A DNA stretch of 37,236 bases from a virus (lineage: Duplodnaviria > Heunggongvirae > Uroviricota > Caudoviricetes), in IMG/VR virus record IMGVR_UViG_2778261175_000003; one strand, given 5' to 3'. A program made the position numbers and the translations under genes. Of this stretch, positions 1 to 37,236 are shown piece by piece. Position 1 is the first letter of the stretch; each line of letters starts with the position of its first letter. Below the pieces are notes generated by a model that searched no databases, was not told where the DNA came from, and saw only the letters and a list, made by a program, of their open reading frames with translations.

Positions 1-141
1 TTACTGCTTACACTGTAAGAACGCCGCAAACTCCGCTCCCCAGAATCTCATCCGTATTTCGCACAGCGAACCGTGCAACATCCAGATGATGAGGATTGCC
101 GTCACGCAGAACGTGATGGCCGTAAGCGATTTTTGCGACAT
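1..141 (-). CDS. Hok/Gef/PndA-family type I toxin, 46 aa (MSQKSLTAITFCVTAILIIWMLHGSLCEIRMRFWGAEFAAFLQCKQ)
   Basis: Hand translation of the minus strand from ATG (rc of 139-141) to TAA (rc of 1-3). One N-terminal TM helix then SLCEIR...E.AAFL.CK, matching the conserved C-terminal motif of Hok and PndA as recalled. Too short for the ORF track. Confidence 0.65.
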   Translation of the reverse strand: MSQKSLTAITFCVTAILIIWMLHGSLCEIRMRFWGAEFAAFLQCKQ

Positions 142-271: not shown

Positions 272-331
272 CAGCCGAAAGGCACCCGCGCGTAATCTAT
301 CTCTTTTTTGTTACTCCGGCAATTCTGCCTG

Positions 332-592
332 TTAATTTTGAGGTAAGGGCAAACTCATCTGATTGTTTCCTTTGTGTGAAGCTGGCAGTTCATGCCACGG
401 GATACCTTCTGAAGAGTGAGCGCCGGAGGCGTGTTTCGATGTGAATTTATGGAAAGCTTCCAGTGTTGAGAAGCATACACCGCATTCTAGGTTGTTACAT
501 TGGTAATACTTTTGCCGCACGGTGTTTGAATCATTTTCCGGACGACTGGTGCGGATTCGGGCAGATGCGCCACAAAGCGGACAACGGAACAT
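332..592 (-). CDS. ogr: Ogr/Delta-family zinc-finger late transcription activator
   Basis: N-terminus MFRCPLCGASARIRTS...YYQCNNLEC matches the P2 Ogr C4 zinc-finger pattern (CPLC...C..C); location next to D as in P2. Confidence 0.85.
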   Translation of the reverse strand: MFRCPLCGASARIRTSRPENDSNTVRQKYYQCNNLECGVCFSTLEAFHKFTSKHASGAHSSEGIPWHELPASHKGNNQMSLPLPQN

Positions 593-802
593 AGCGACCT
601 CCCTTACTGTGGTGCTTCCGCTATTCTAAGTTGTACTGATACAGATTCCAATTAACAGCTTGTCTTGTGTGAAAAGTGGAAGTTCACAATTGTGATAGCC
701 ATTACTAACGTTGTGATGTATTAGTCAACGGGAAACAAGGCATCTGTAACATATCTATGGATATGTTATATTATTGTTGCCATAGGAAAAACCCGCTTTA
801 AA
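593..802. promoter_or_regulatory. AT-rich divergent intergenic region between ogr and the hxs cassette with two palindromes (TCACAATTGTGA at 684-695; ACATATC-N4-GATATGT at 749-766)
   Basis: Perfect inverted repeats read directly from the sequence; the second lies about 37 bp upstream of the first hxs start. Function as operator or promoter is inferred. Confidence 0.3.
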
Positions 803-1117
803 GTGGTTGCTGATCATGAATATTTGTATTGGAAGATAATTGCAATGAGCGAAAGAGTGTTTGAGAAAGAACTATATTCTGAATGGGTTATACGCAATAG
901 TCTATATTGGATGACTCCGCTTACTCGATGGAAACTCCATGAAGACGTTTCCCACTGGATAATCTCTTTTGAAAACGATAATCCCAAATTCCTTTATGAA
1001 TTCGATAGGCTGCTTAATGATTACTCTTTGCGAGAAAAGCTACAGCATAAAACAGGGGCGTTGAGAGACTCTATTGTCCATAAAGTGCTTCGCAGTGTTG
1101 ATGAGAGGCTTTCATAA
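803..1117 (+). CDS. hxsD: Small protein at the head of the Hxs cassette, HxsD-like by position
   Basis: ORF track (GTG start at 803; alternative ATG at 845). Stop overlaps the start of the next gene (TAATGG). Assignment by operon context only. Confidence 0.45.
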   Translation: MVADHEYLYWKIIAMSERVFEKELYSEWVIRNSLYWMTPLTRWKLHEDVSHWIISFENDNPKFLYEFDRLLNDYSLREKLQHKTGALRDSIVHKVLRSVDERLS

Positions 1118-2505
1118 TGGAATTGATGCCATTTAATTTTGACAGATTGCCTAATGGACAGGTGTTTATAAGCAACCTTGCAGGTTTTCATCATTTCATT
1201 GGTGAGCAAGACCTTATTGATCTTTCTGATGAGCGAATTAGTTCGGAGCAATCAAACGTGCTAGAAAGTAAGCTTTTCATAACCAGTGAAAGCTCATCTG
1301 CTATAACTCCCTATGCTTTAAGTTCTGCTTTTGCAAAACGATTGATGAATGAACTGGCTGTCAGGCCAATTTTCATGATTGTACCCACATTACGTTGTGA
1401 CCATACATGCAAGTATTGCCAGGTTAGTAGAGCTTCTGTTAATGCCTCAGGTTACGACCTAAATCCTGAGCTCATCCCCGATATTATTTCGGCTATTAAA
1501 AAACTATCAACGCCACCTTACAAAATAGAGATACAGGGTGGGGAGCCTCTCTTGCGGTTTGATTTAATTCAGAACATCTATGATCAATGTGCTGAAACGC
1601 TGGGAAGAACCAATTTTGAGATGGTGGTGGCATCAAGTCTGTCTGTCTTGAATGAGGATATGATTGAATGGTCGAGAGACCGGAACATAACGTTCTCTGT
1701 GTCGCTTGATGGTGAGGAAGTTGTTCACAACAGTAATCGAATTCTTGGTCGTGGGCTTGCGTACAGTAGAACAGTGTCAGGGGTAGAGGCTATCAAACAC
1801 TCTTTAGGTGCTGGCCGCGTTGCAACGGTTACTACAGTTACTAAAGAGCTTATCAGACGTCCTGAATCGATTGTTCAGGCTCACTTGTCTCTTGGGCTCA
1901 AGGACATGTTTATCCGACCTGTTAGTCCCTATGGGTTTGCACAAAAAGCTTCTTTCACCTTTTCTATGGACGAATACTTCAGCTTCTATGCCTCGTTGAT
2001 AGATGAAATCCTTAAGATTAATAATGAAGGGATAAGGGTTGTGGAACATTCGGCCTCCATTCATCTGAAAAGGATCTTCAATCCCGGTTTTAGTGGCTAT
2101 GCGGATTTAAAGTCTCCAAGTGGAGTCGTGCTTAACAGTATTCTTTTCAATTATGACGGTCGAGTATATGGTAGCGATGAGAGCCGTATGTTGCAGAAGG
2201 TGAATCCTGAAACGGAGTTCAGTGCGGGTGAAGTTAAGACGCTATCATTTTCTGATAGTCCTTACTATAACGCAGTATTGACTTCATCGTTCAATTTTGC
2301 TCTGCCAGGTTGTGATACATGTGCATATCAACCATTTTGTGGTTCAGATCCATGCCAGAACATAAGTGTACAGGGTGAGCCTGTCGGCGATAGGAGTCGT
2401 TCAACGTTTTGTCAATATCACAAGGGGATGTTCAGGTATCTGATGAACTGCATCTCAGAGGGTGGTTCGAAGGCTGAGATGCTAAAAGGATGGGCATATG
2501 TCTGA
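1117..2505 (+). CDS. hxsB: Radical SAM/SPASM-type maturase, HxsB-like (462 aa)
   Basis: CxxxCxxC motif (CDHTCKYC) about 95 aa from the N-terminus, C-terminal Cys cluster (CDTCAYQPFCGSDPCQ) typical of SPASM/twitch domains; GGEPLL motif; translationally coupled to neighbours. B versus C naming is by size and order, from memory of the TIGRFAMs Hxs families. Confidence 0.75.
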   Translation: MELMPFNFDRLPNGQVFISNLAGFHHFIGEQDLIDLSDERISSEQSNVLESKLFITSESSSAITPYALSSAFAKRLMNELAVRPIFMIVPTLRCDHTCKYCQVSRASVNASGYDLNPELIPDIISAIKKLSTPPYKIEIQGGEPLLRFDLIQNIYDQCAETLGRTNFEMVVASSLSVLNEDMIEWSRDRNITFSVSLDGEEVVHNSNRILGRGLAYSRTVSGVEAIKHSLGAGRVATVTTVTKELIRRPESIVQAHLSLGLKDMFIRPVSPYGFAQKASFTFSMDEYFSFYASLIDEILKINNEGIRVVEHSASIHLKRIFNPGFSGYADLKSPSGVVLNSILFNYDGRVYGSDESRMLQKVNPETEFSAGEVKTLSFSDSPYYNAVLTSSFNFALPGCDTCAYQPFCGSDPCQNISVQGEPVGDRSRSTFCQYHKGMFRYLMNCISEGGSKAEMLKGWAYV

Positions 2506-3610
2506 GGTTATCAGGAACGATATCTTTCATTTTGCTTCTACAGAGAACGTGCCCACGGGGTTCTATCGGTTATGCAAACAAAAACCAGTGAACCCTTTAT
2601 TCTTTTTGCCCAATTTGCTAGTAGTTGCTGAGGGCAATAATGATGCCATTCCACCATGCTTTGATTTCTCTGTTATTAGCACTGAATTATTTGAGTCAAT
2701 TGAAGATGGAGATATTGGGATAATCAACAATGGCAATATGATACGCGTTATTCTGTCACGCAAAGCCAACCATAATACTGTCTTAGTTACGGAACGCTGC
2801 AATAACTTGTGTCTGTTTTGTTCGCAGCCACCAAAGAAAATAAATGATGACTGGCTACTTACCCAATCAGCTCTTGCTATAGCTTCATTTGGCTTGAACG
2901 GAGTTGTTGGGGTCAGCGGTGGTGAACCTTTGCTATATGGGGATGACTTCCTTCACTTCATTGATTTTATCATCGAGAATTCACCAGATACTGCTTTACA
3001 TGTTTTAACAAACGGACGCAAATTTGCTGATACCAACTTTACACAGGAAATGGCAAAGCGAAGCAAAAAGATCAAAATCACCTTTGGTATCCCGCTCTAC
3101 TCATCAAGACCACTTGTGCATGATCATCTGGTAGGGAGTGATGGCGCATTTAATGAAACGGTTAAAGGGTTAATCAATGCAGGAAACTTGGGGATTAATA
3201 TCGAACTTAGAGTTATTCCTACACTGGCTAACTATACCGAATTGGATGATATCGTAGAATTCGCTGGCCGTGTGTTCTCCAACATCAATCAGATTTCCCT
3301 TATGGGGTTGGAGCCTATCGGTTGGGCACGAAAAAACTGGTCCACCATCTTCATTGATCACAGTAGTTATAGTGAGAAAATAATCTCTGCCATAGACGCT
3401 GCATACAGGTCAGGCATACCTCTGACAATTTTTAATTATCCTTTGTGTTATCTTCCTGAAAGGGCTAGGGAGCTTGCTGTTCAGTCGATCTCTGATTGGA
3501 AAAATTACTATCCAAAAGAATGTGATGAATGTACTCAGAAGCCTTCCTGTGCTGGCTATTTCAGTTCCTCAAAAGGCCGTTTTCATCAATCACCGAGACC
3601 AATTTTATGA
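2498..3610 (+). CDS. hxsC: Second radical SAM/SPASM-type maturase, HxsC-like (370 aa)
   Basis: CxxxCxxC (CNNLCLFC), GGEPLL motif, C-terminal Cys cluster (CDECTQKPSC). Start ATGTCTGA overlaps the hxsB stop; its stop overlaps the hxsA start (ATGA). Confidence 0.75.
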   Translation: MSEVIRNDIFHFASTENVPTGFYRLCKQKPVNPLFFLPNLLVVAEGNNDAIPPCFDFSVISTELFESIEDGDIGIINNGNMIRVILSRKANHNTVLVTERCNNLCLFCSQPPKKINDDWLLTQSALAIASFGLNGVVGVSGGEPLLYGDDFLHFIDFIIENSPDTALHVLTNGRKFADTNFTQEMAKRSKKIKITFGIPLYSSRPLVHDHLVGSDGAFNETVKGLINAGNLGINIELRVIPTLANYTELDDIVEFAGRVFSNINQISLMGLEPIGWARKNWSTIFIDHSSYSEKIISAIDAAYRSGIPLTIFNYPLCYLPERARELAVQSISDWKNYYPKECDECTQKPSCAGYFSSSKGRFHQSPRPIL

Positions 3611-4242
3611 AAAAGTTTAATTTTGCTGCTCTACTTCCGGGATTTTTGGCTCTCAACAATTCTGTATGGGCAAGCGATTCATCTACAGGAGCGAGTGATT
3701 TACCTGGTATGACTCTTAATGAGCATGATTTAGTGATAGCTCCACTTAACACGGAAGTCCCATTTTATATCGCAGGGCATCGAAGCCATAGTTCTCATAG
3801 GAGCCATAGCTCTCATAGATCCTCATCAGGTGGTGGATACTATGGTGGAAGTACCCCCTATTATCCAAAAACATACAGCTCACCAAGTTCATCTGGTTCT
3901 TCAAGTTCAGGTGCAAGTTCCTCATCGTCCTCTTCCTCGGTGCGTGCACTTCGTTCTAACGATAATAATAGAACCACTAACACGAGTTCTGTTGGAACTT
4001 CAGAGGTTAACCGTACGAGTAATGGGCTTGCTTCTGATGCAGAGAAACGTAAGCGATTGATTATGCGAGTTCAGTTCGCATTGCTGGACAGGGGATTTTA
4101 TAACGGAAATATTGACGGCATAATGGGGCCATCCACAAGGCTGTCTGTGAAAAATTACCGCATTGCGAATGGATTACCGATTCCTGCAACTGAAACACTC
4201 GACACACAATTGTTAAATTCTTTGAATATATTAGCTCGCTAA
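3607..4242 (+). CDS. hxsA: His-Xaa-Ser repeat protein HxsA-like: signal peptide, (HxS)x5, Ser-rich linker, C-terminal peptidoglycan-binding-like domain
   Basis: Start taken at MKKFNFAALLPGFLALNNSVWA (ATG 3607) rather than the track start 3529. Contains HRSHSSHRSHSSHRS, a poly-Ser tract and a C-terminal segment (RVQFALLDRGFYNGNIDGIMGPSTRLSVKNYRIANGLP) resembling PG_binding_1 domains. Confidence 0.75.
   Translation: MKKFNFAALLPGFLALNNSVWASDSSTGASDLPGMTLNEHDLVIAPLNTEVPFYIAGHRSHSSHRSHSSHRSSSGGGYYGGSTPYYPKTYSSPSSSGSSSSGASSSSSSSSVRALRSNDNNRTTNTSSVGTSEVNRTSNGLASDAEKRKRLIMRVQFALLDRGFYNGNIDGIMGPSTRLSVKNYRIANGLPIPATETLDTQLLNSLNILAR
3778..3822 (+). repeat. Coding tandem repeat encoding five His-Xaa-Ser units
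   Basis: DNA reads cat-cga-agc-cat-agt-tct-cat-agg-agc-cat-agc-tct-cat-aga-tcc; position derived from codon arithmetic in the hxsA frame. Confidence 0.8.
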
Positions 4243-27506: not shown

Positions 27507-28124
27507 CTAATTATCTTCTGTCTCCTGCCACGAGACTTTTCCGCCAGCCTTTATGATGGCTCGTTCAACATCTCTTTCGTACCGCAAAGGCTGGAATACT
27601 CCGTTAATGAAATACTCCTTTGGGTTCGGGATCTGCACTGTAAATGTGCCACGCTCTGATGTTGGGCGACGCACCTCTTTCTCAAAAGAAAGCGAGTTGT
27701 TATGCATTAACGCAGCATACTTTAGTGCATCCTGTGCTTTCTGAAATTTCAGTGCGTAGTCAGTAGCGATCTCTTCCAGTGCTGCGATGCGCTTACTTCC
27801 ATCCGCGATAACACCTTCGAAATACTCACGCTGCTCGTTGAGTTTTAATTTTACCGACTCCAGTTGTTTTGTTAGTTCTGCAATACGGCAAACATCGTTG
27901 ATACGCGTTTCTTCTAATGCGTTGCTCTCATCCAGTAGCGTCAGCACGGTTTCTGGTCCGGCCAGAAATTTGAAGGCGTTGAGCGCATCAATATCAACAC
28001 CGCTATCTTTAAGTTCCTGTTCGCTTATCAGATCATCATCAACTGGCAACATTAACAGGCGGTCCATTGCCGGAATTGCACGCTCTGCCGCCTCACGCAG
28101 TGCCTGATAGTCAATCTTGCTCAT
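27507..28124 (-). CDS. Coiled-coil protein of unknown function, possibly Ead/Ea22-like
   Basis: N-terminus MSKIDYQALREAAERA resembles the conserved N-terminus I recall for Ead/Ea22-like prophage proteins; ATGA-coupled to the upstream gene. Confidence 0.4.
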   Translation of the reverse strand: MSKIDYQALREAAERAIPAMDRLLMLPVDDDLISEQELKDSGVDIDALNAFKFLAGPETVLTLLDESNALEETRINDVCRIAELTKQLESVKLKLNEQREYFEGVIADGSKRIAALEEIATDYALKFQKAQDALKYAALMHNNSLSFEKEVRRPTSERGTFTVQIPNPKEYFINGVFQPLRYERDVERAIIKAGGKVSWQETEDN

Positions 28125-28711
28125 GGGATAACTCCTTTGTGTTGCGTCAGCTCTTCCTGCGCCTGCATCATGCGATTGACCAGAACGTGCGTGCGTCGAA
28201 CGGAAAAAACAAACAGATTCAAAAGGCGGCGCATCTCTTTGTCCTCATGTCGCGCATGACGGAGAAAGGCAAGTCGGTAGAACTCGGATTCGGCAGCGCG
28301 TTGAATCAACGACAGATCAAAGTGAAGTGCTGGTCTGGTGCATTTTGCGCATCTGGCGGCAAGCTCTGGCATCAATCTCTTAACGAAGGTGTTTTGTACT
28401 GCTTTGTTGAGTTGTGTCTGCATCCAAATCGCAAATTTCAGCGAACGCATGAGCCGGATCGCGTCGGGCAACGGCAGATAGATCATGCTGGCGGTTTTGG
28501 GTAGCGGATGAATCATTTTCACGGAGACGCGATCGCGCAGTGTTCGAAAAATCGTGTTCCCGACAACAGACTCCACGGAGACAGGGCAGGGGGCCAGACC
28601 AACCCGCAACGCGTTCGTCATGAACAGATATTCATCTTTTTTCATCGTGTTTTCCTTAGTGCGGGGGCGACAGTGCGCCCCGATAAAATTAAAAGCCGTC
28701 AAATTCGTCAT
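28121..28711 (-). CDS. Hypothetical protein (174-196 aa depending on start)
   Basis: ORF track; alternative start at MKKDEYLF (28645) with AAGGAAA RBS; no family recognised. Confidence 0.4.
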   Translation of the reverse strand: MTNLTAFNFIGAHCRPRTKENTMKKDEYLFMTNALRVGLAPCPVSVESVVGNTIFRTLRDRVSVKMIHPLPKTASMIYLPLPDAIRLMRSLKFAIWMQTQLNKAVQNTFVKRLMPELAARCAKCTRPALHFDLSLIQRAAESEFYRLAFLRHARHEDKEMRRLLNLFVFSVRRTHVLVNRMMQAQEELTQHKGVIP

Positions 28712-29044
28712 TCATCTTCCTGCTCCCTGCGTTCCTTGTTCTTCTCGGATAACGCTGTTGCACACTTCCACACACTCGTCGCAGATGAAAACGTCGTCCC
28801 CGGAAAATAACTTTTTGACGGCGTGCTGTGGTTTCTTGCAGAAGCTGCAATAAAGCGTTCGCCTGACAGATACGGACGATGTGTAGGATGCCAGCCTCGT
28901 GATGTCGTCCTTGCGACGCAACATCACACGGCAGCACTCAACCAGTTTTTCCGGGGGGATTTCTTCCTCTGTGGCGAGCGCCTCCAGTCGTTCTATCAGA
29001 TGGAGTGCTTTTTCCGGGGGCATTGCAGAATATGCTGTGGTCAT
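28712..29044 (-). CDS. Small protein with C-terminal ClpX-type C4 zinc-binding domain (110 aa)
   Basis: C-terminus [39 protein letters not shown] closely matches the ClpX N-terminal zinc-binding domain ([39 protein letters not shown], from memory). No AAA+ module follows. Confidence 0.7.
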
Positions 29045-29056
29045 CTTCTTTCTCCT

Positions 29057-29257
29057 TCAAAGTTCAGTGTGTTGACAGAGCTGCCCTTTGCGACAGACCA
29101 GTACGCTCCCTTTGCTTGAGTCGGTGATTGTCACCGTGCCGTCATCGCACTGGACAGCGATGACTGTGTTGCTCTTTTCCGTTGTGCAGTTCGGTGTGGC
29201 CGAGTGCGCCAACGGAACGAAAAACAGCGAAAAAAGTAATGTCAGTCTTTTCGTCAT
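29057..29257 (-). CDS. Small secreted protein (66 aa) with signal peptide and four Cys
   Basis: Start at MTKRLTLLFSLFFVPLAHSA with AGGAGG RBS; mature part about 45 aa. Confidence 0.5.
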   Translation of the reverse strand: MTKRLTLLFSLFFVPLAHSATPNCTTEKSNTVIAVQCDDGTVTITDSSKGSVLVCRKGQLCQHTEL

Positions 29258-29332
29258 GGCTACCTCCTGCTTCCTGTTTCTGAGGCATGGCGCACCAGAT
29301 AAAAACTGTCCGCCATGCCTTATCACGTTGCC

Positions 29333-29644
29333 TTATTCTGGGAATAACGCCCTGATGTTTGCGGCCATCTGGCTGGTTGTCTGAGCCTCTGGCGCAGCCT
29401 GTGTTTTGGTTTTTTCTGCACTGACCTGTGTCACGGGTAATGGCTCATCGTCAGCCCATGCAGCCAGCCGGTAAGCCTCTGCCGGATTCTTCTTCAGAAG
29501 CGCCAGTCCGGCCAGAAAAGCCACACGCTGGCCGCTTTTGCGGGCTTCTGGTGTAAGGCTGTCCAGCCAGGCACATGCTTCGCTTTCGTTCTTGACTGCC
29601 GCAGGCTTCAGATAGAAACTTATCCGTCTGGTTGATGTCGTCAT
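29333..29644 (-). CDS. parR: ParR/StbB-like partition adaptor
   Basis: Pattern RRISFYLKP....LDSL.PE.R...RVAFLAGLAL parallels R1 ParR (RRTIAFKLNP....LDSIPQGERSRLNRAALTAGLAL); sits directly downstream of the parM-like gene. Confidence 0.7.
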   Translation of the reverse strand: MTTSTRRISFYLKPAAVKNESEACAWLDSLTPEARKSGQRVAFLAGLALLKKNPAEAYRLAAWADDEPLPVTQVSAEKTKTQAAPEAQTTSQMAANIRALFPE

Positions 29645-29647
29645 GAT

Positions 29648-30607
29648 CTATTCCCTGTTCATGGCGTGGAGACCATTAACCAGAGCAAACTGTGGCACCC
29701 CGTCCGCGATAAAAGTCGCATTAACTCCGCAGGCTTCGCGGACAGCGGGTGCCACAATCTCCGCCCCTCCACCGACAACCATCACCCGCCCGTAACCCGA
29801 AAAGCTCGCCAGCGCGCGGAGTACACGTTGTTTCAGTGTTTCTTCCTTTTCACGAATAACCGCCATCAGGCTGTTGTAATGTGCGTCATTGTGGATGTGC
29901 TGGCGCAGCCAGGCTTCATCATGGCGATGTTCGATAATGGTATTGGCGATGTGGTGACTGGTGCGCATACCGTTAGTGGCCATCACCGACAGTACGGCAT
30001 CGGCCATCAGAGAAACGCCTACGTGTGGATCGCAAAACACCTGGCTGATACCTGCCAGTTGTCCCTGAACCTTTGCCACATCCAGCGTGGTTCCGCCTAA
30101 ATCCACAATCAGCAGGGATTCAAACGGACTCATGTCAGCCAGCGCCTTAAAGCCAGCCGGAATGGATTCAGGCATAACCCGCACGTTACGGATAGTGAAT
30201 GCTTCGCCGTTCTGGTACTCCACCGGGCGCATAACGTTCGCTTTTTTGCGGTTGATGTTGGTCATATCCGGCTGGGCGTTTGTATCGAAATACTCGCTCA
30301 GTGGCAGGGTGACAACCACATCCACCTCCTGTGGTGTGATGCCTGATTTGACCAGCGCGTGATGAATGGCAATGACATTCACATCGCTGTACTGGTATTG
30401 CGTGTCGGTCGTCTGGACAAAGCGATCGCTGACCGGATCAAAACCATAGCGCACGCCATCAAGCATGTAGTTCGCGGGCTGCGTGCCACCGAACGGTGCA
30501 GACCATTCCGACTTGAAGCTGTTCGGGCTGATGGCGTTGCGGCGTTCGCCGTTCTCAGTCCAGGCCAGCTTGATGTTGGTGGAGCCGTCGTCGATACAAA
30601 TTTTCAT
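29648..30607 (-). CDS. parM: ParM/StbA-like actin-family segregation ATPase
   Basis: N-terminus MKICIDDGSTNIKLAW and internal motifs (YSDVNVIAIHHAL, MPESIPAG, LIVDLGGTTLD, MVVGGGAE) match plasmid R1 ParM as recalled. Confidence 0.85.
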   Translation of the reverse strand: MKICIDDGSTNIKLAWTENGERRNAISPNSFKSEWSAPFGGTQPANYMLDGVRYGFDPVSDRFVQTTDTQYQYSDVNVIAIHHALVKSGITPQEVDVVVTLPLSEYFDTNAQPDMTNINRKKANVMRPVEYQNGEAFTIRNVRVMPESIPAGFKALADMSPFESLLIVDLGGTTLDVAKVQGQLAGISQVFCDPHVGVSLMADAVLSVMATNGMRTSHHIANTIIEHRHDEAWLRQHIHNDAHYNSLMAVIREKEETLKQRVLRALASFSGYGRVMVVGGGAEIVAPAVREACGVNATFIADGVPQFALVNGLHAMNRE

Positions 30608-30643
30608 GTCGATTTTCCTTATATTGATGAATTAATCGTTTAT

Positions 30644-30747
30644 GGGATTTTTAAATCCTGTTTTTGCCTGTTTTATGCGCGCTTTATATTTCGCGGCGCG
30701 TTTTTTGCTCATTTACGGGATTTGTGAATCCCGTTTCTGTCTGTTTT
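30644..30747. repeat. Two 31-bp imperfect direct repeats, each with an internal inverted repeat (GGGATTT-N3-AAATCC..GTTT.TG.CTGTTTT), upstream of parM and overlapping the 3' end of A
   Basis: Copies at about 30644-30674 and 30717-30747, separated by an AT-rich spacer; candidate parC-like centromere/operator or part of the replication origin. Confidence 0.45.
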
Positions 30748-33524
30748 TTGTTTCCACTGGTCAGGCCACCCCGCAGCAGGTCTGCTTTGCGGCGGGCGCG
30801 TTCAGTGGTTTCACTGATTCTCTGTGCGTGCTCCGCGTCACGGATGGCGCGCAGCATGTCAGAAAGCACGGTAACGGGGGTTTTCATGGTGTTCTGGTCC
30901 TGCTGAAGTGTGGATGCCAGGCGTGCGGCGGCTTCGGGGTCTGATGCCCCCAGCTGTTCCAGATAGCTGGCGACCGGGTTATGGCGGATCTCCGTGCTAC
31001 TTACGCCGTGATTACGGCTCAGGCGCTGCCAGAGCTGCGTGATTCGGCTGTCCGGGCGGGTATCCGGTTTGCGTACAATTTCAAATCCCTGCGGTGCAAT
31101 GATGCTGCCGTCAACGTACAGACTGCCGCCCCGTAACAGGTGCTGCATCTGTTGTTCACCGATATGCAGGCCGAGAGATTCAGCAGACTCACGCCATTCT
31201 TTAGCGAGTAATTCGTGGTTATCAGGCAAAGGCCGCTGCTGTTTGCAGCTCTGTGTCCAGCTCTGCATTTCATCACTGCTGTTTTTTGCCTGTTTGTCAC
31301 GAAGCGAACGCATCAGCGCCCGGCGTTCGTGCCGTTTCAGTGAGCGTATCCATTCGTTCACTTCAACGCCGTCAGGGAGCTGCGGCCACGGTGCTGACCG
31401 TTCTTCCGGCTGTTCTGTCCCGTTGTTGTCCGTTTCCTGTACACGGGGACAGTTATTGCCACGAGTCCAAGGGGCGGCAGGGCCGCCCTGAAGGTCAAAA
31501 CCATTTTCGCGGGCGCTGTCTTCCGCTTCCGGTTTGCGTCTTACCAGCTTCCAGCTATCCGGATGCGTGCACACACGGGAGGATTCCCCGATGAGTGGTG
31601 ACCAGATCCCGTAAATCTGTACGCTCTGTTCGCCGTAATCGTTCAGCTCATCTGCGAGGTTGTAGGCGGTGCGAATCAGGTAGTCTTTGCGTGGAACAAG
31701 TACGCCACCCTGTTTCTCAATGTAGGTGGCAAAACACCCGGCATCAGCGGCAGCGAGTACCGCATCCATTGCGTCATTTTCCAGACGTTGTGGACCTTCC
31801 GGGTTGCGGGCCATCTGACTGGCAAGGCGGCGGAGTTCACGCCATACCTGACGGGAGGGGATACCAAAGAACTGGAACTGGCGGACGCGGTGAAGACGCG
31901 CCCAGCCGATGGCGCGTTCCACGCTCTCGGCCATTGATTTTCCGGTTTCGTGGTCCACGCGTGGCTTGCCCGTTTTCGGGTCGATGCCATCCACGGCGCG
32001 GCTGTCCAGGTTCTTTCCGATGTAGGTGGCGATGTAGCTGGTTGGCGTGCCTTTTGAGCCGTCGACGTACTCCGCCTTAAAACGCGGAGTTATGTCATCG
32101 CCCAGCTCGTGGCGGTCTTCCAGAATGGCAATATCGCAGACGTGGGACACGATGGTTTCAATCTCGTCAGGATGAGCAAAAACCATCATGTGCCAGTGCA
32201 CCGTGCCGTCATGATGAGGCTCCACCGTGCGGATGCCATACCAGCGCAGGCCGTCGCGGTTCAGTTTTTTGCGGACCGCCGCAAAAAACGTGTTAACCAG
32301 GTAATCGCTGGAGTCGCGCATAGTGGCCCCGTTCCATTTGGGATTCGGATGACCGTTCTCCGTTGTTGCGTGGTATTTTGACGGGCAGGTGACAGTCAGA
32401 AACACCGCTCTGTCGCCACGGGCTTCGGCCAGAAGTTCCAGCCCCTTCATGGTGGCCATCATTTCTGCCTTACGGTGAACCGGGTTACTTACTCCCGCGT
32501 AATACACTGTCTCGAGATCAATCGTGAACCCGTCTTCATTTTCCAGCATGAAACTTTTCAGGAAATCGCGTGTTTTCTCGCGCTGTGCGCGAAACTCGCT
32601 TAACGCGTCCTGGCTCAGATAGGGTGATGTTTTTCTGGAAACCAGACAGGCGGCGCGGAGTTGTTCTTCTCTCCACTCGCAACGTAACAGCCACAGTTTG
32701 CGTTTCCACCATTCCGCACAGGTCAGGCGAAGGATTGCGCCCGGCAGCAGCTCCGTGTCCGGTTCGTTCCTCCGGTCTTTGTCTGTTGTCAGTGCGTCAT
32801 AATGTGGAGGCGTGGCGTGCAGGTGTAACGCCATGCGGGCCAGCATCTGATACGCCTTCAGCGTTACATCCATGGTCAGTTCGCCATCAGTCGCGCCAAA
32901 GCCATCGCAGAGTTTTTCGAAGGTGCTGCTGAACATCGCCGCCGTCATGGTGGCCAGCGTCTGTATCTGGTGTTTGTTGAGCTGCGGCAGGTAAAGCAAA
33001 TCGTCCAGGCGTTCGCGTCCGGCAAGGGAGCGATAACCCGGTGTCAGCCAGCGGTGATCGGTGCGGTCCAGACGTTCGAATATTTTGCGCAGGGTTCCGC
33101 GCGCGTAGCGTTCAGCCTGCCAGCTCTTTTTGCCTTTCTGGCGATCGGCTTCCTGTTTTTTGCGCAGGAAAGAGAGGTGGCGGCTCAGTGGTTCACGCAG
33201 ATAAACAGGTAGTGCCTTTAGTATGGCAAAGGCACGGGCTACCGGGTCTTGTTCTGTTGCCCGGCGCTTACTGATGATGCTCTGTGCCAGCTTTTCACGC
33301 TGTCCGGCTTCCTCAAGGGATGCCATGAGTTTTTTACCCATGGCAGATTGTGCGAAAAAGGCTTCTTCCTTCGCTTCCTGTTCTTCCTGTGCCCTTTTGT
33401 CCGCCTCAAGGTAGTAACGGATGGCGCGTTGCAGGTCGGTTTCAGTTTCCTGCCTGCGCTCCGTAAATCTGGCCGGATCAATGGCTGGTCGTGGTTCATT
33501 CCAGCTCCATGCAAACTCACTCAT
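30684..33524 (-). CDS. A: Replication initiation endonuclease A (rolling-circle, HUH-type)
   Basis: Very long ORF with HUH motif (TVHWHMMVFAHP) and tyrosine pair (YIATYIGKN). Start at MSEFAWSW (ATGA overlap with the upstream gene). Longer than P2 A as I recall it. Confidence 0.8.
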   Translation of the reverse strand: MSEFAWSWNEPRPAIDPARFTERRQETETDLQRAIRYYLEADKRAQEEQEAKEEAFFAQSAMGKKLMASLEEAGQREKLAQSIISKRRATEQDPVARAFAILKALPVYLREPLSRHLSFLRKKQEADRQKGKKSWQAERYARGTLRKIFERLDRTDHRWLTPGYRSLAGRERLDDLLYLPQLNKHQIQTLATMTAAMFSSTFEKLCDGFGATDGELTMDVTLKAYQMLARMALHLHATPPHYDALTTDKDRRNEPDTELLPGAILRLTCAEWWKRKLWLLRCEWREEQLRAACLVSRKTSPYLSQDALSEFRAQREKTRDFLKSFMLENEDGFTIDLETVYYAGVSNPVHRKAEMMATMKGLELLAEARGDRAVFLTVTCPSKYHATTENGHPNPKWNGATMRDSSDYLVNTFFAAVRKKLNRDGLRWYGIRTVEPHHDGTVHWHMMVFAHPDEIETIVSHVCDIAILEDRHELGDDITPRFKAEYVDGSKGTPTSYIATYIGKNLDSRAVDGIDPKTGKPRVDHETGKSMAESVERAIGWARLHRVRQFQFFGIPSRQVWRELRRLASQMARNPEGPQRLENDAMDAVLAAADAGCFATYIEKQGGVLVPRKDYLIRTAYNLADELNDYGEQSVQIYGIWSPLIGESSRVCTHPDSWKLVRRKPEAEDSARENGFDLQGGPAAPWTRGNNCPRVQETDNNGTEQPEERSAPWPQLPDGVEVNEWIRSLKRHERRALMRSLRDKQAKNSSDEMQSWTQSCKQQRPLPDNHELLAKEWRESAESLGLHIGEQQMQHLLRGGSLYVDGSIIAPQGFEIVRKPDTRPDSRITQLWQRLSRNHGVSSTEIRHNPVASYLEQLGASDPEAAARLASTLQQDQNTMKTPVTVLSDMLRAIRDAEHAQRISETTERARRKADLLRGGLTSGNKKQTETGFTNPVNEQKTRREI

Positions 33525-34000: not shown

Positions 34001-34237
34001 TTATTGCTGGCTTGAGGTTCGTTTCTGTTTAATTCCGTGCATGCTGTAGAAGAAATCAAAAGTGTTATCTATGCGTATCATGAGCTCACGCTGCATCGCT
34101 TCTGGTGTTTCTGGTTCACCTGGTGAGCCAACTCCCGCGAAGAAATCACCGATCTCGCTTTGAATAAGTGCCTTTAGCGTTGCTGAGGAATTCAGGTGTG
34201 TGCGGTGATGTCTGCGAGTGATTCTTCTCCTGCTCAT
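34001..34237 (-). CDS. Hypothetical early-region protein (78 aa)
   Basis: ORF track; ATGA-coupled to the upstream gene. Confidence 0.4.
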   Translation of the reverse strand: MSRRRITRRHHRTHLNSSATLKALIQSEIGDFFAGVGSPGEPETPEAMQRELMIRIDNTFDFFYSMHGIKQKRTSSQQ

Positions 34238-34437
34238 TTGCGTGGATCCTGTACCTGTCGGATAAGATTCACCCGCGCCACATTAGTGGCGCAGAAGTAA
34301 GTACCGTCAGTGAGATAGATGTGGTGTGCATCCTTTTCTGAGCGGTGTTTGTCGATTGTGGTAATCAGGCGTTCGTCGACTTCGTATTCACGTCCTCTGG
34401 AAGTGAAACGAACGACAGGAAAATGCTTAATTGCCAT
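34234..34437 (-). CDS. Hypothetical early-region protein (67 aa)
   Basis: ORF track; no family recognised. Confidence 0.4.
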   Translation of the reverse strand: MAIKHFPVVRFTSRGREYEVDERLITTIDKHRSEKDAHHIYLTDGTYFCATNVARVNLIRQVQDPRK

Positions 34438-34524
34438 TACGCCTCCTGGGCGTGTGCGAATACCTCCGCGAATGCGGATTGTTTTTACATTTTCTTATTT
34501 AACCAAGGGTTTTTATTTGCGCTG

Positions 34525-34638
34525 TTATTCGCCAGTGAAAATACGTTCAATCTTTTTTACTGAATGAATAATTTGCATAATCCCAATGGCGCAGACCACC
34601 GAAATAATCAGGACAAGCCATGAGATAAATATACTCAT
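34525..34638 (-). CDS. Small hydrophobic peptide (37 aa, MSIFISWLVLIISVVCAIGIMQIIHSVKKIERIFTGE)
   Basis: Hand translation; start overlaps the stop of the upstream gene (ATGA), suggesting translational coupling; one predicted TM helix. Below the ORF-track size cutoff. Confidence 0.35.
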   Translation of the reverse strand: MSIFISWLVLIISVVCAIGIMQIIHSVKKIERIFTGE

Positions 34639-34877
34639 GCAATATTCCCCAGCTTATACGGTTCAATATGCTCCCCGCATTCTGCGGCACAGATCAGCTC
34701 AGAAAGTTCGTTAAGTGCATCCAGATCATCAGCGTAAAAAGCCACGTCATACAGACTCCGGATTGCCCTGGTCAATGAGTCACGGGCTGCACGTTCAGCA
34801 TGAGCACCTGATGCACTTAAGCGAAAATAAAAACGCTCAAGTGCTTTGTTAATGAGAGTTTTATATTCTTTGCCCAT
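34635..34877 (-). CDS. Hypothetical early-region protein (80 aa)
   Basis: ORF track; no family recognised. Confidence 0.4.
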   Translation of the reverse strand: MGKEYKTLINKALERFYFRLSASGAHAERAARDSLTRAIRSLYDVAFYADDLDALNELSELICAAECGEHIEPYKLGNIA

Positions 34878-34888
34878 CGCAACGCCCT

Positions 34889-35167
34889 TTAATCTGCTTT
34901 CTGAATTTCAGCTTCTGAATCCATACAAATAATTTCGATATAGGGTTCATCGCCATTAATCTTACGTGCTTTTTCAGCTTCGCTAATGATTCCGTGTACA
35001 GTCTGGTACGGAAGTTCTACGGTCAGGCGCGTGCCGTTCAGATAAACGTAAGTAGCTGCATTTTTTTCTGATGGGACAACTCCATCAATAGCTGATGCGC
35101 GCAATAACAGTTCACCGCGAAAATCAATAAAACGGATAAATACACCTTGTGCATGCTCTTTGGTCAT
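34889..35167 (-). CDS. Hypothetical early-region protein (92 aa from MTKEHAQG)
   Basis: ORF track with start moved to M34 to avoid overlap with the upstream gene. Confidence 0.4.
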   Translation of the reverse strand: MTKEHAQGVFIRFIDFRGELLLRASAIDGVVPSEKNAATYVYLNGTRLTVELPYQTVHGIISEAEKARKINGDEPYIEIICMDSEAEIQKAD

Positions 35168-35177
35168 AACGCACCTG

Positions 35178-35516
35178 TTATAAATCAGTCTGTTTAATAA
35201 AACTTTGCCCGCGAAGCAGACGATCAACCGTGCGAAGTGCTTCGTACAATGTGAAATCCTGTCCAAACTGATTGTCGCCGTTGCTCAGAGCAAAAATGCG
35301 GTTTCCGGTAAATGGGTTGCGTTGGCATCTGTGAACCACGATTCCAGCTTTTTCAATCAGCCAGGTGTGTTCGCCAATTTGTTTTACTGTATGGCCATCT
35401 GGCGTTGCGTGTGTCTCGCTCAGGCTGTAGCGGATGTTGCTGCGTGATGCGCTGGTAGCGAAACGGTTAGCTTGGCGTTCCGTTTCGGTGCGAAAATTAC
35501 GGCGTTGCTTCAGCAT
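35178..35516 (-). CDS. Hypothetical early-region protein (112 aa)
   Basis: ORF track; first gene after cox; no family recognised. Confidence 0.4.
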   Translation of the reverse strand: MLKQRRNFRTETERQANRFATSASRSNIRYSLSETHATPDGHTVKQIGEHTWLIEKAGIVVHRCQRNPFTGNRIFALSNGDNQFGQDFTLYEALRTVDRLLRGQSFIKQTDL

Positions 35517-35530
35517 AAAATGACACCTCG

Positions 35531-35809
35531 TTATTTTGTCATCTGCACGTATTTCTCTGCGTTTCTGATGGTTTTCAGGAAAATTGCGAAGAGATTTACT
35601 GTACGTTTTGAGTTTTTTTCTTCTTGGTTGATGGGAAGGGCTGCTCTGTCAGCCTGCCTTTTCACTGCATTAACAGTTTGATTGGTACGCTTCGCGTAAT
35701 CTTTCAGGCTTTCTTCGAGTACCGGTAATCCATGCTCATCGCGGTATGGGTAGAACGCCGCCAAACGCTCAAAATCCGCTTGCTCGTATGTGTTCAAGAG
35801 CTTTGTCAT
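35531..35809 (-). CDS. cox: Cox-like excisionase/early repressor
   Basis: Divergent from the C repressor; HTH segment DYAKRTNQTVNAVKRQADRAALPI parallels P2 Cox (EFAKLIGKSTGAVRRMIDKGKLPVI). Confidence 0.6.
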   Translation of the reverse strand: MTKLLNTYEQADFERLAAFYPYRDEHGLPVLEESLKDYAKRTNQTVNAVKRQADRAALPINQEEKNSKRTVNLFAIFLKTIRNAEKYVQMTK

Positions 35810-35900
35810 GATGTGATAACCTGTTCAGTCTGTGGTTATTTGTTGCTAAAAGTCGTCTATAGGCGACTTTTAGGGTTAATTTAGTCGTCTGGAGACCACC
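35810..35900. promoter_or_regulatory. Immunity-region divergent promoter/operator with direct repeats AGTCGTCT (35851-35858, 35883-35890) and an AGTCG...CGACT inverted repeat
   Basis: Repeats read directly; position between cox and C as for P2 Pe/Pc and the C operators. Confidence 0.45.
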
Positions 35901-36212
35901 ATGTCAAGTGGGTATGAAAAAAAACTGAAAGAGATACGGAAAAGTGAAGGGTTAACTCAAGCTGAGTTTGCTGATGTTACTGGGATAAATCTCGGAACTA
36001 TAAAGAATTATGAGAGCGGTAAAAGAGAGGTTGGTTTAAGCGTTGTTGATCGCGTAATTAATTCTAAGGATTTCGAAAAATACACTATATGGCTTATGAC
36101 GGGAAAAACAAATGAGGCTGCTGGGCAGATCAGTCCCTCTCTCTCCCCTGATGGGCCAGAAAACACATCGTCTTCTCAAAAATCCCGCAAGACTGGTACA
36201 CAGCCCGGCTAA
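35901..36212 (+). CDS. C: Immunity repressor C (HTH-XRE)
   Basis: Matches P2 C along its length (e.g. KYTIWLMTGKTNEAAGQISPSLSPDG vs KYTLWFMTNQIAPESGQIAPALAHFG from memory). Confidence 0.8.
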   Translation: MSSGYEKKLKEIRKSEGLTQAEFADVTGINLGTIKNYESGKREVGLSVVDRVINSKDFEKYTIWLMTGKTNEAAGQISPSLSPDGPENTSSSQKSRKTGTQPG

Positions 36213-36261
36213 TCATGGAACGCTGGGGGCATGGTGGTCTTGTAACGCTGGGGTTTCACGA

Positions 36262-37236
36262 ATGAGCATAAAATCAATTCCGGGAGGGTATCTTCTTGAC
36301 ATGCGCCCTGAGGGGCGTAAAGGCAAACGCATTCGCAAAAAATTTAAAACGAAATCGGATGCAGTTTTATATGAGCGGTGGGTGCTGGCGCAACAGCATA
36401 ACAATGAGTGGAAAGGAAACTCCATTGATCGCCGTCCGCTGTCGGTGCTTATTGACTTGTGGTGGAAATACCACGGCCAGCTAATGAAGTCAGGGCATAA
36501 CACGCGCCTTAAATTGCTGCGCTTGAGTGAGGCAATGGATGACCCGTGTGTGCATAAACTTAATACAACGATGCTCACCGAGCTACGTGTGTCCAGGATA
36601 GAGCAGGGGATACAGCCCAGCACCATTAATCGAGAGATTGGGGCGTTAAGCGCGATGTTTACCGCACTCATCTCATCCGGCCATTTTCTTAACGATAACC
36701 CCGTTCAAGGCCTTAAAGGAATGAAGGTTAACGAGCGCGAAATGGGATATCTGAGTAAGTCTGAATGTGTTCAGTTGCTGGATGCACTGGCTGAAAATCC
36801 CGATGAACGGCTGGCTGTCGAAATCCTTCTGTCGACCGGGGCGCGATGGGGCGAGGTAGCGGCACTGGAGCAGCGCCGTGTTCTTCATTGTCGAATCACT
36901 TTTTCAAAAACGAAGAACAGCAAAAACCGTACCGTTCCTATTTCTGAAAGCCTGTTTGAAAAGATCAAAAAACGGGGCGGGAAACTGGTGTTTCCGACGC
37001 TGGATTATCCATTAGTTCGCGATGTCATCAAAACGGTCGCACCTGATGTTCCTGACGGCCAGGCTGTTCATGCGCTGCGCCACACCTTCGCCAGTCATTT
37101 CATGATGAACGGCGGCAATATTCTGACGCTCCAGAAAATTCTGGGGCACGCAAAGATTCAGACAACGATGATTTATGCCCATCTTGCGCCGGATTACTTG
37201 CAGGATGCGGTGAGATTTAATCCTATTGCTGGGTAA
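36262..37236 (+). CDS. int: Tyrosine integrase
   Basis: Catalytic R...HxxR...Y signature (TGARWGE, HALRHTFAS, TMIYAHL); start at MSIKSIPGG (M51 of the track ORF); downstream of C as in P2. Confidence 0.85.
   Translation: MSIKSIPGGYLLDMRPEGRKGKRIRKKFKTKSDAVLYERWVLAQQHNNEWKGNSIDRRPLSVLIDLWWKYHGQLMKSGHNTRLKLLRLSEAMDDPCVHKLNTTMLTELRVSRIEQGIQPSTINREIGALSAMFTALISSGHFLNDNPVQGLKGMKVNEREMGYLSKSECVQLLDALAENPDERLAVEILLSTGARWGEVAALEQRRVLHCRITFSKTKNSKNRTVPISESLFEKIKKRGGKLVFPTLDYPLVRDVIKTVAPDVPDGQAVHALRHTFASHFMMNGGNILTLQKILGHAKIQTTMIYAHLAPDYLQDAVRFNPIAG

Follow-up and report, generated by a model that had tools for sequence, protein, structure and literature searches.

A conserved ParM/ParR pair beside replication gene A of a P88-like P2-family prophage as a candidate minimal type II partition cassette

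Type II partition systems, broadly defined, combine a motor, an adaptor and repeats acting in cis. In the parA locus of plasmid R1, a theta-replicating plasmid of low copy number, these components are parM, parR and parC; the C-terminus of R1 ParR is the ParM-binding tail, and proteins of the ParR family autoregulate their own operons in R1. Among phages, the P1-like phage D6, which is a plasmid prophage, encodes a StbA-type protein, and the RefSeq record of phage P88 (Xuanwuvirus P88) already annotates a “plasmid segregation protein ParM” and a “partition protein”. In the integrated prophage CGP3, an actin-like filament former, AlpC, is co-transcribed with a DNA-binding adaptor, AlpA, with sites (alpS) located upstream of the operon; the genes are switched on early, and efficient replication of the excised phage circle depends on them (Donovan et al. 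2015, PMC4446434). The present study concerns the parM and parR genes at positions 29333-30607 of a 37,236-nucleotide (nt) stretch of tailed-phage DNA (IMG/VR record IMGVR_UViG_2778261175_000003). The whole stretch, hereafter the window, is essentially one whole P2-family prophage.

The locus contains the same two protein families as the R1 locus in the same gene order, with repeats located 5' of parM. It differs from R1 in the nature of the repeats, two of 42 nt with 16-bp palindromes in place of ten 11-bp direct iterons around the promoter, and in its carrier, an integrating rolling-circle phage. Phage P88 possesses the same genes at the same place (gp17, ParM; gp18, partition protein), and its ParM is 97.5% identical, but the genes following parR differ and the late genes of the window are far less alike and represent a rarer structural backbone. 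AlpC/AlpA of CGP3 is the best functional precedent, although the host is a Gram-positive Corynebacterium, the prophage is large and cryptic, and AlpC is described as a divergent actin-like protein, whereas the window proteins are canonical members of the StbA/StbB families. It is proposed here, with a probability of about 0.5, that the pair is a functional, minimal ParMRC-like type II cassette which would act on extrachromosomal replicating phage circles and which would belong to the backbone of P88-like phages, not to their cargo.

Two adjacent minus-strand open reading frames (ORFs) fill the interval exactly, with a gap of 3 nt between the parM stop codon and the parR start codon, and the gene directly upstream, on the same strand, is replication gene A:

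29648-30607, minus strand: parM, actin-like partition ATPase, 319 amino acid residues (aa)
29333-29644, minus strand: parR, centromere-binding adaptor of the StbB/ParR family, 103 aa
30684-33551, minus strand: replication gene A, rolling-circle initiator, 955 aa (Pfam Phage_GPA, E-value 1.6e-128)

ParM matches the Pfam StbA_N domain with an E-value of 2.8e-82 (274.8 bits, cut-off 24.6) and the Pfam ParM C-terminal domain with an E-value of 4.4e-68 (228.8 bits, cut-off 27.4), and aligns end to end (residues 2-316) with the structure of plasmid R1 ParM, 1mwk (E-value 7.9e-93). Identity to R1-type ParM, taken from an R1-type locus of an IncFII plasmid, is 46.9% over 318 aa. A preliminary interpretation made from the letters of the window (the sequence-only reading) had predicted a ParM/ParR pair at this place, and these alignments, together with those of ParR given below, bear it out. 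The conserved ATPase residues are retained as well: DDGSTNIK (phosphate 1), PESIPAG (catalytic), DLGGTTLD (phosphate 2) and GGGAE (adenosine) are identical to the motifs of R1-type ParM at equivalent positions. A protein search with ParM revealed a tight clade of 92-98% identity, followed after a gap by proteins of Hafnia and Plesiomonas phages (62-63%) and of a Serratia prophage (58%). The Hafnia and Plesiomonas proteins share all four nucleotide-binding motifs unchanged; in Serratia ParM, two of the motifs differ by one residue each (DDGSTAIK, GGGAN). By family, ParM is predicted to be an actin-like partition ATPase of the StbA/ParM type, and this family assignment is secure.

The second protein, ParR, matches Pfam PF10784 (Plasmid_stab_B; E-value 6.2e-23, 80.9 bits, cut-off 25) and, over its full length, the PHROGs family phrog_2515, “partition protein” (1.5e-54). 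A profile comparison with PDB gave ParR of pB171 (2JD3) as the top match, co-linear and weak at an E-value of 0.021. Pairwise similarity to R1 ParR amounts to 34% identity and is limited to the N-terminal 56 aa (E-value 7e-9). The description of both proteins as close to those of R1 was thus right as to homology and overstated as to degree, ParM being alike over practically its whole length and ParR only over this part. Two segments of ParR can be distinguished:

29450-29644, minus strand: ParR N-terminal domain, aa 1-65, presumed DNA-binding ribbon-helix-helix, with the strand TRRISFYLKP followed by helices
29336-29374, minus strand: ParR C-terminal tail, aa 91-103, with the sequence ...QMAANIRALFPE, presumed ParM-binding helix

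The N-terminal domain aligns with the N-terminal domains of R1 and pB171 ParR, its residues R6-P14 are invariant among 20 homologues, and the ratio of nonsynonymous to synonymous substitution rates (dN/dS) is 0.092 for residues 1-65. The linker (aa 66-90), in contrast, is hypervariable and nearly neutral, with a dN/dS of 0.70. In the tail, N96, I97 and P102 are invariant within the motif N-I-[RQ]-A-[LF]-F-P-E, and the R1 ParR C-terminus, KKNAMKLIN, aligns with this segment. The ParR proteins encoded by the Hafnia, Plesiomonas and Serratia phages are longer and can be aligned with R1 ParR from end to end; their last residues, KNNASGLFPD, RKNAASLFPR and RQNASNLFPG, respectively, match up with the same R1 sequence. 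ParR of the E. coli clade lacks a helix of about 14 residues that is present in the ParR proteins of R1 and of these three phages. An AlphaFold2 monomer model of ParR, built with a 20-sequence alignment, was poor (mean predicted local distance difference test score 52.4) and contained a low-confidence helix at residues 86-100.

As to variation within parR, at least two ParR allele groups occur alongside nearly identical ParM proteins; their linkers are unrelated and their tails read NIRALFPE and KKNIQAFFPE. Some loci lose their homology to the window within parR, at about 29445-29504, a pattern suggestive of recombination inside the gene.

The pair is a common, annotated and published feature of P88-like prophages and, as such, is already known. 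The DNA of parMR is 91-93% identical to that of 14 phage records, comprising P88, other Xuanwuvirus members and unclassified P88-like phages of Escherichia and Citrobacter, and most annotated P88-like records already label the genes as ParM or partition protein. The corresponding PHROGs families, phrog_691 (ParM) and phrog_2515 (ParR), are both named “partition protein”. The locus was found in 1302 of the 5426 complete E. coli genomes of RefSeq (24%), where the labels of the Prokaryotic Genome Annotation Pipeline are ParM and “plasmid partitioning/stability family protein”, and in 242 viral contigs of IMG/VR. Rousset et al. 2022 (PMC9122126) examined the region between gpA and gpQ in P2-like prophages of E. 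coli, noted parMR and suggested plasmid maintenance in passing. The view that such machinery is unexpected in an integrating phage is therefore not upheld. What is added here is the distinction of a conserved, selected backbone module from hotspot cargo, a two-site parC candidate and the domain logic of ParR.

The sequence-only reading had assigned the pair to the accessory slot between gene A and cos, in which P2 carries orf91, tin and old. The interval is indeed the same, from gene A to the portal/cos end, and orf91 of P2 is co-directional after A, like parMR. However, tin and old are lysogenic-conversion exclusion genes with a separate promoter on the opposite strand, whereas parMR is conserved and keeps its position in four genera. 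In the P2-like prophages of Hafnia, Plesiomonas and Serratia, the order is gene A, parM, a PF10784 parR, variable genes, (ogr) portal and terminase. A contig scan with ParM yielded three very close loci only, and these more distant relatives were obtained by the protein search and contig look-ups. The comparison covered 88 related loci, that is, 86 phage or prophage loci and two R1-type plasmid controls. Homology to the window stops at 29325-29340, at the parR stop codon, in 66 of the 88, and in most of the others it stops within the 3' half of parR. Because the break falls at the parR stop codon in most loci, the variable slot begins only 3' of parR:

27507-29326, minus strand: variable cargo slot, four small genes 3' of parR, outside the partition module

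In the Serratia prophage, this slot contains HicAB. The pair belongs to the conserved early/replication backbone of P88-like P2-family phages and is not variable cargo.

The window genome is mosaic. Its DNA is 95.4% identical to P88 over 29327-33203 and 90% over 34231-35495, so that the early and parMR region as a whole is 90-95% identical, but the structural (late) genes reach only about 70-80% and have a higher guanine-cytosine (GC) content (about 0.60). In the late region, even the nearest phage record is no more than about 75% identical, and the late-gene backbone was found at >90% identity in 16 of the 5426 E. coli genomes. Since the early region is P88-like while the late backbone differs and is rare, the A-parMR module appears to move as a unit between structural backbones.

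These comparisons bear on the possibility that the pair is an inert hitch-hiker of plasmid origin that travels with gene A and no longer has a function. The lack of an R1-style iteron array, described below, could be read in this way. However, both genes are under purifying selection, with dN/dS of about 0.1: for parM, the value is 0.108 (mean dN 0.013 and mean dS 0.123 for 64 distinct close-clade sequences compared with the window), and that of the DNA-binding domain of ParR is similar. ParM is full-length in 88/88 loci, and ParR is truncated in one and was not recovered in one. The locus is at least 80% complete in 1278 of the 1302 matching E. coli genomes, and synteny is kept in other genera at 58-63% protein identity. 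The reading of the pair as an inert relic is strongly disfavoured and must be regarded as exceedingly improbable.

Upstream of parM, two direct repeats with one palindrome each were found:

30636-30750, unstranded: candidate minimal parC, two 42-nt direct repeats (30636-30677 and 30709-30750), 81% identical, with one palindrome each
30644-30659, unstranded: proximal 16-bp palindrome, AGGATTTAAAAATCCC on the coding strand, candidate ParR site, 37 nt 5' of the parM ATG
30717-30732, unstranded: distal 16-bp palindrome, GGGATTCACAAATCCC on the coding strand, within the last codons of gene A, candidate ParR site

The candidate parC straddles the stop codon of gene A (30684-30686), and the palindromes are spaced 73 nt start to start. 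The pattern GGGATTNNNAAATCCC, with up to 2 mismatches allowed, is confined to the two palindromes within the 37-kb window; 4 strand-hits were observed against a chance expectation of 0.63, and 4 were reached in 0/100 shuffles. The Hafnia phage contains GGGATTGAGGAAACCC and GGGTTCATTAAATCCC 73 nt apart, the proximal one 40 nt before the ATG, despite a different upstream gene. In the Plesiomonas phage, two GGGACAACA..AACCC repeats are 72 nt apart, 44 nt before the ATG. Repeated cis sites beside an operon for a motor and an adaptor would fit the broad definition of a type II system and make this region a candidate centromere. A complete R1-type ParMRC locus is not present, as neither an iteron array nor a consensus promoter was found: the fetched R1-type upstream region contains A/C-rich 11-bp repeats, and there are none such upstream of the window parM. 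A test of A-tract periodicity for hidden 11-bp iterons gave no signal, but the R1 parC control was equally without signal. A terminator-like match at 30715-30734 was rejected, being merely the distal palindrome on the non-coding strand.

The position of the candidate sites can be related to the origin of replication. The A protein of the window is 31% identical to that of P2, and in the alignment the nick site annotated for P2 (A codon 620) falls at about codon 693 of the window gene. By homology, the origin would lie at about 31,475, roughly 0.8 kb from the palindromes. P2-type phages replicate to monomeric circles and package from monomeric circles. Under the proposed mechanism, parMR would probably be transcribed with the early operon, since it lies directly behind A in the same orientation and no promoter of its own could be recognised. 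ParR dimers would bind both palindromes, close to the presumed origin, and the C-terminal tail of ParR would capture the growing ends of ParM-ATP filaments, which would push apart or position the circles bearing parC, as in plasmid R1. The placement at the end of the early operon and the overwhelming integration of the prophages suggest that the system would act while the phage genome is an extrachromosomal circle replicated by A, after infection or excision. Its most likely role would be the spatial organisation or distribution of replicating phage circles. The benefit could be efficient replication and packaging, or the retention of copies by both daughters of a dividing cell until the phage integrates or lyses its host.

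Plasmid-type actin spindle genes are thus present in about a quarter of complete E. coli genomes, within integrated P2-family prophages. If they do position replicating circles, they would be the first Gram-negative counterpart of AlpAC of CGP3, and would connect bacterial cytoskeletal partition with the uncommon way in which P2 phages replicate and package their DNA as circles.

Several observations weigh against this interpretation. The literature search found no paper testing parMR function in these phages. The Serratia relative carries different upstream repeats, and in the close clade the palindromes vary about as much as the non-coding bases around them (0.094 versus 0.104 differences per site), so that for palindrome conservation the cross-genus comparison alone is informative. 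The candidate centromere consists of two sites only, not of about ten 11-bp iterons flanking a promoter as in R1, and because of this it is uncertain whether an R1-type ParR ring could form. A consensus scan of 28900-31000 found no sigma-70 promoter, and thus none between A and parM; this negative scan is the sole basis for the presumed co-transcription with gene A. By eye, a weak ATGAGC-N18-TATAAA was noticed between the palindromes, overlapping the stop codon of gene A, and it could serve as a candidate ParR-controlled promoter. Finally, a complete P88-like genome from a cat E. coli isolate has been deposited as a circular plasmid of 34,461 bp, pZ1323PEC0009-2 (NZ_CP148288.1), which is compatible with an episomal role as much as with a replicative one.

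This record is one argument for a facultative plasmid prophage, in which parMRC, perhaps with hok/gef, would keep a non-integrated circle at low copy number, for instance in hosts whose attB is missing or already taken, or following excision without lysis; such plasmid maintenance was mentioned in passing by Rousset et al. 2022. A 5-kb part of pZ1323PEC0009-2 containing parMR and most of gene A is 100% identical to a chromosomal prophage of the human isolate Z1323HEC0067 from the same study series; the circular assembly could equally be an excised replicative form arising from spontaneous induction. A Hok/Gef toxin gene is also present in the window and, with parMR, makes up homologues of both stability loci of plasmid R1. 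In addition, D6 is the only other phage in a 50,697-record collection with this ParM family, its protein being 47.8% identical to the window ParM over the full length, although the window phage, as distinct from D6, has an integrase and is found integrated. Against these points stands the distribution of the locus in complete E. coli genomes, with 1440 chromosomal places and 2 on plasmids. Among 72,556 plasmid records (PLSDB), one is a stand-alone phage circle, and, apart from the Shigella boydii fragment described below, the other matches lie within records of 0.2-1.4 Mb.

Public contigs with an identical ParR point in the same direction, as the phage was integrated in 8/8 of the contigs listed (eight of 24 that carry this ParR). 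In these eight, the integrase adjoins a 131-aa gene and btuC/btuE/btuD-like host genes (FecCD, GSHPx, ABC_tran), which indicates one fixed chromosomal attachment site. Chromosomal integration is the normal state of the prophage, and the chromosome-to-plasmid ratio together with the integrated contigs argues against a habitual episomal state. The window, moreover, retains an integrase, a repressor and Cox, and the only replication gene recognised in it encodes the cis-acting A protein, the rolling-circle initiator from the lytic early operon; no plasmid-type copy-control replicon was seen. Phage-plasmids are mainly extrachromosomal and possess a plasmid-type replication/copy-control module; neither property was found here. 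Stable plasmid lysogeny is disfavoured, and the facultative plasmid prophage appears somewhat unlikely. If it did exist, a very common element would make the line between integrative prophages and phage-plasmids less sharp. A more specific version, in which P88-like P2 phages are integrative with a second, plasmid-like mode of persistence, the circle being partitioned by the two-site ParMRC and backed by hok/gef addiction, is unlikely; if it were true, one in four P2-like prophages of E. coli would count as a facultative phage-plasmid.

Two further observations concern the plasmid records. In pZ1323PEC0009-2, several tail genes are split into short “hypothetical” coding sequences, which suggests long-read frameshift errors. 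A 26.7-kb “plasmid” of Shigella boydii was set aside, as it is a linear, IS1-ridden prophage fragment and provides no evidence for an episome.

The small number of sites is also relevant to a co-opted, non-partition role, in which ParR would be mainly a regulator of the end of the early operon, or ParM/ParR would mediate incompatibility or exclusion against competing plasmids or phages. Two sites resemble an operator more than a centromere, the autoregulation known for the ParR family in R1 would provide a model for such control, and the pair adjoins the known P2 defence hotspot gpA-gpQ. A purely regulatory role, though, leaves unexplained the conserved ATPase motifs of ParM, the strong purifying selection and the conserved ParR tail, and the pair occupies a constant position in different genera, next to hotspot cargo that turns over. 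Neither ParM nor ParR matches any PADLOC defence model, and a reading of the pair as a defence system was dropped for that reason. Altogether, a co-opted role seems very unlikely, and positioning of replicating circles remains the preferred explanation.

The remaining genes of the window are those of a P2-family phage. The region 35531-37236 contains a Cox-like gene, a gene for a C-type repressor and a gene for a tyrosine integrase (phrog_1, 6.1e-73), in agreement with the earlier statement that the pair resides in an integrase-encoding phage of this family. Beyond the cargo slot, the portal and large terminase genes are located on the other strand. A search for the P2 cos sequence, with up to 3 mismatches allowed, gave no match in the window, and cos was not located. 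At the left edge of the window are ogr (about 330-600, minus strand) and the Hok/Gef toxin gene (1-141, minus strand; 46 aa; PF01848, E-value 7.7e-8). A hok gene is also present in P88 (gp52) and in pZ1323PEC0009-2. Rfam and transfer RNA (tRNA) scans of the window gave no matches, and thus neither a Sok RNA nor a tRNA.

In the variable slot, the ORF at 29057-29326 is small and has a signal-peptide-like N-terminus, a 110-aa protein contains a ClpX-type C4 zinc finger (PF06689, zf-C4_ClpX, E-value 2.1e-16), and another product is an Ead/Ea22-like protein (Pfam Ead_Ea22, E-value 2.6e-20). The fourth, a 196-aa protein, is without a family match, and none of the genes at 27507-29326 had a PADLOC match. 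A ClpX-finger gene occurs at the equivalent place in P88. Just 3' of the parR stop codon, at 29283-29320, lies a 13-bp inverted repeat, 92% complementary, with a 12-nt spacer. It is located at the point where homology to P88 ends and lacks a T-run on the coding strand, so it is no obvious intrinsic terminator.

Between ogr and the tail gene D, the plus-strand block 803-4242 is of low GC content (0.42). It encodes a 104-aa ORF, a 237-aa protein with a peptidoglycan-binding match below threshold, and two radical S-adenosylmethionine proteins of 462 and 370 aa (phrog_1802 and phrog_15140), whose pVip-like PADLOC matches are weak, at about 1e-7. This block may be a second accessory or defence slot.

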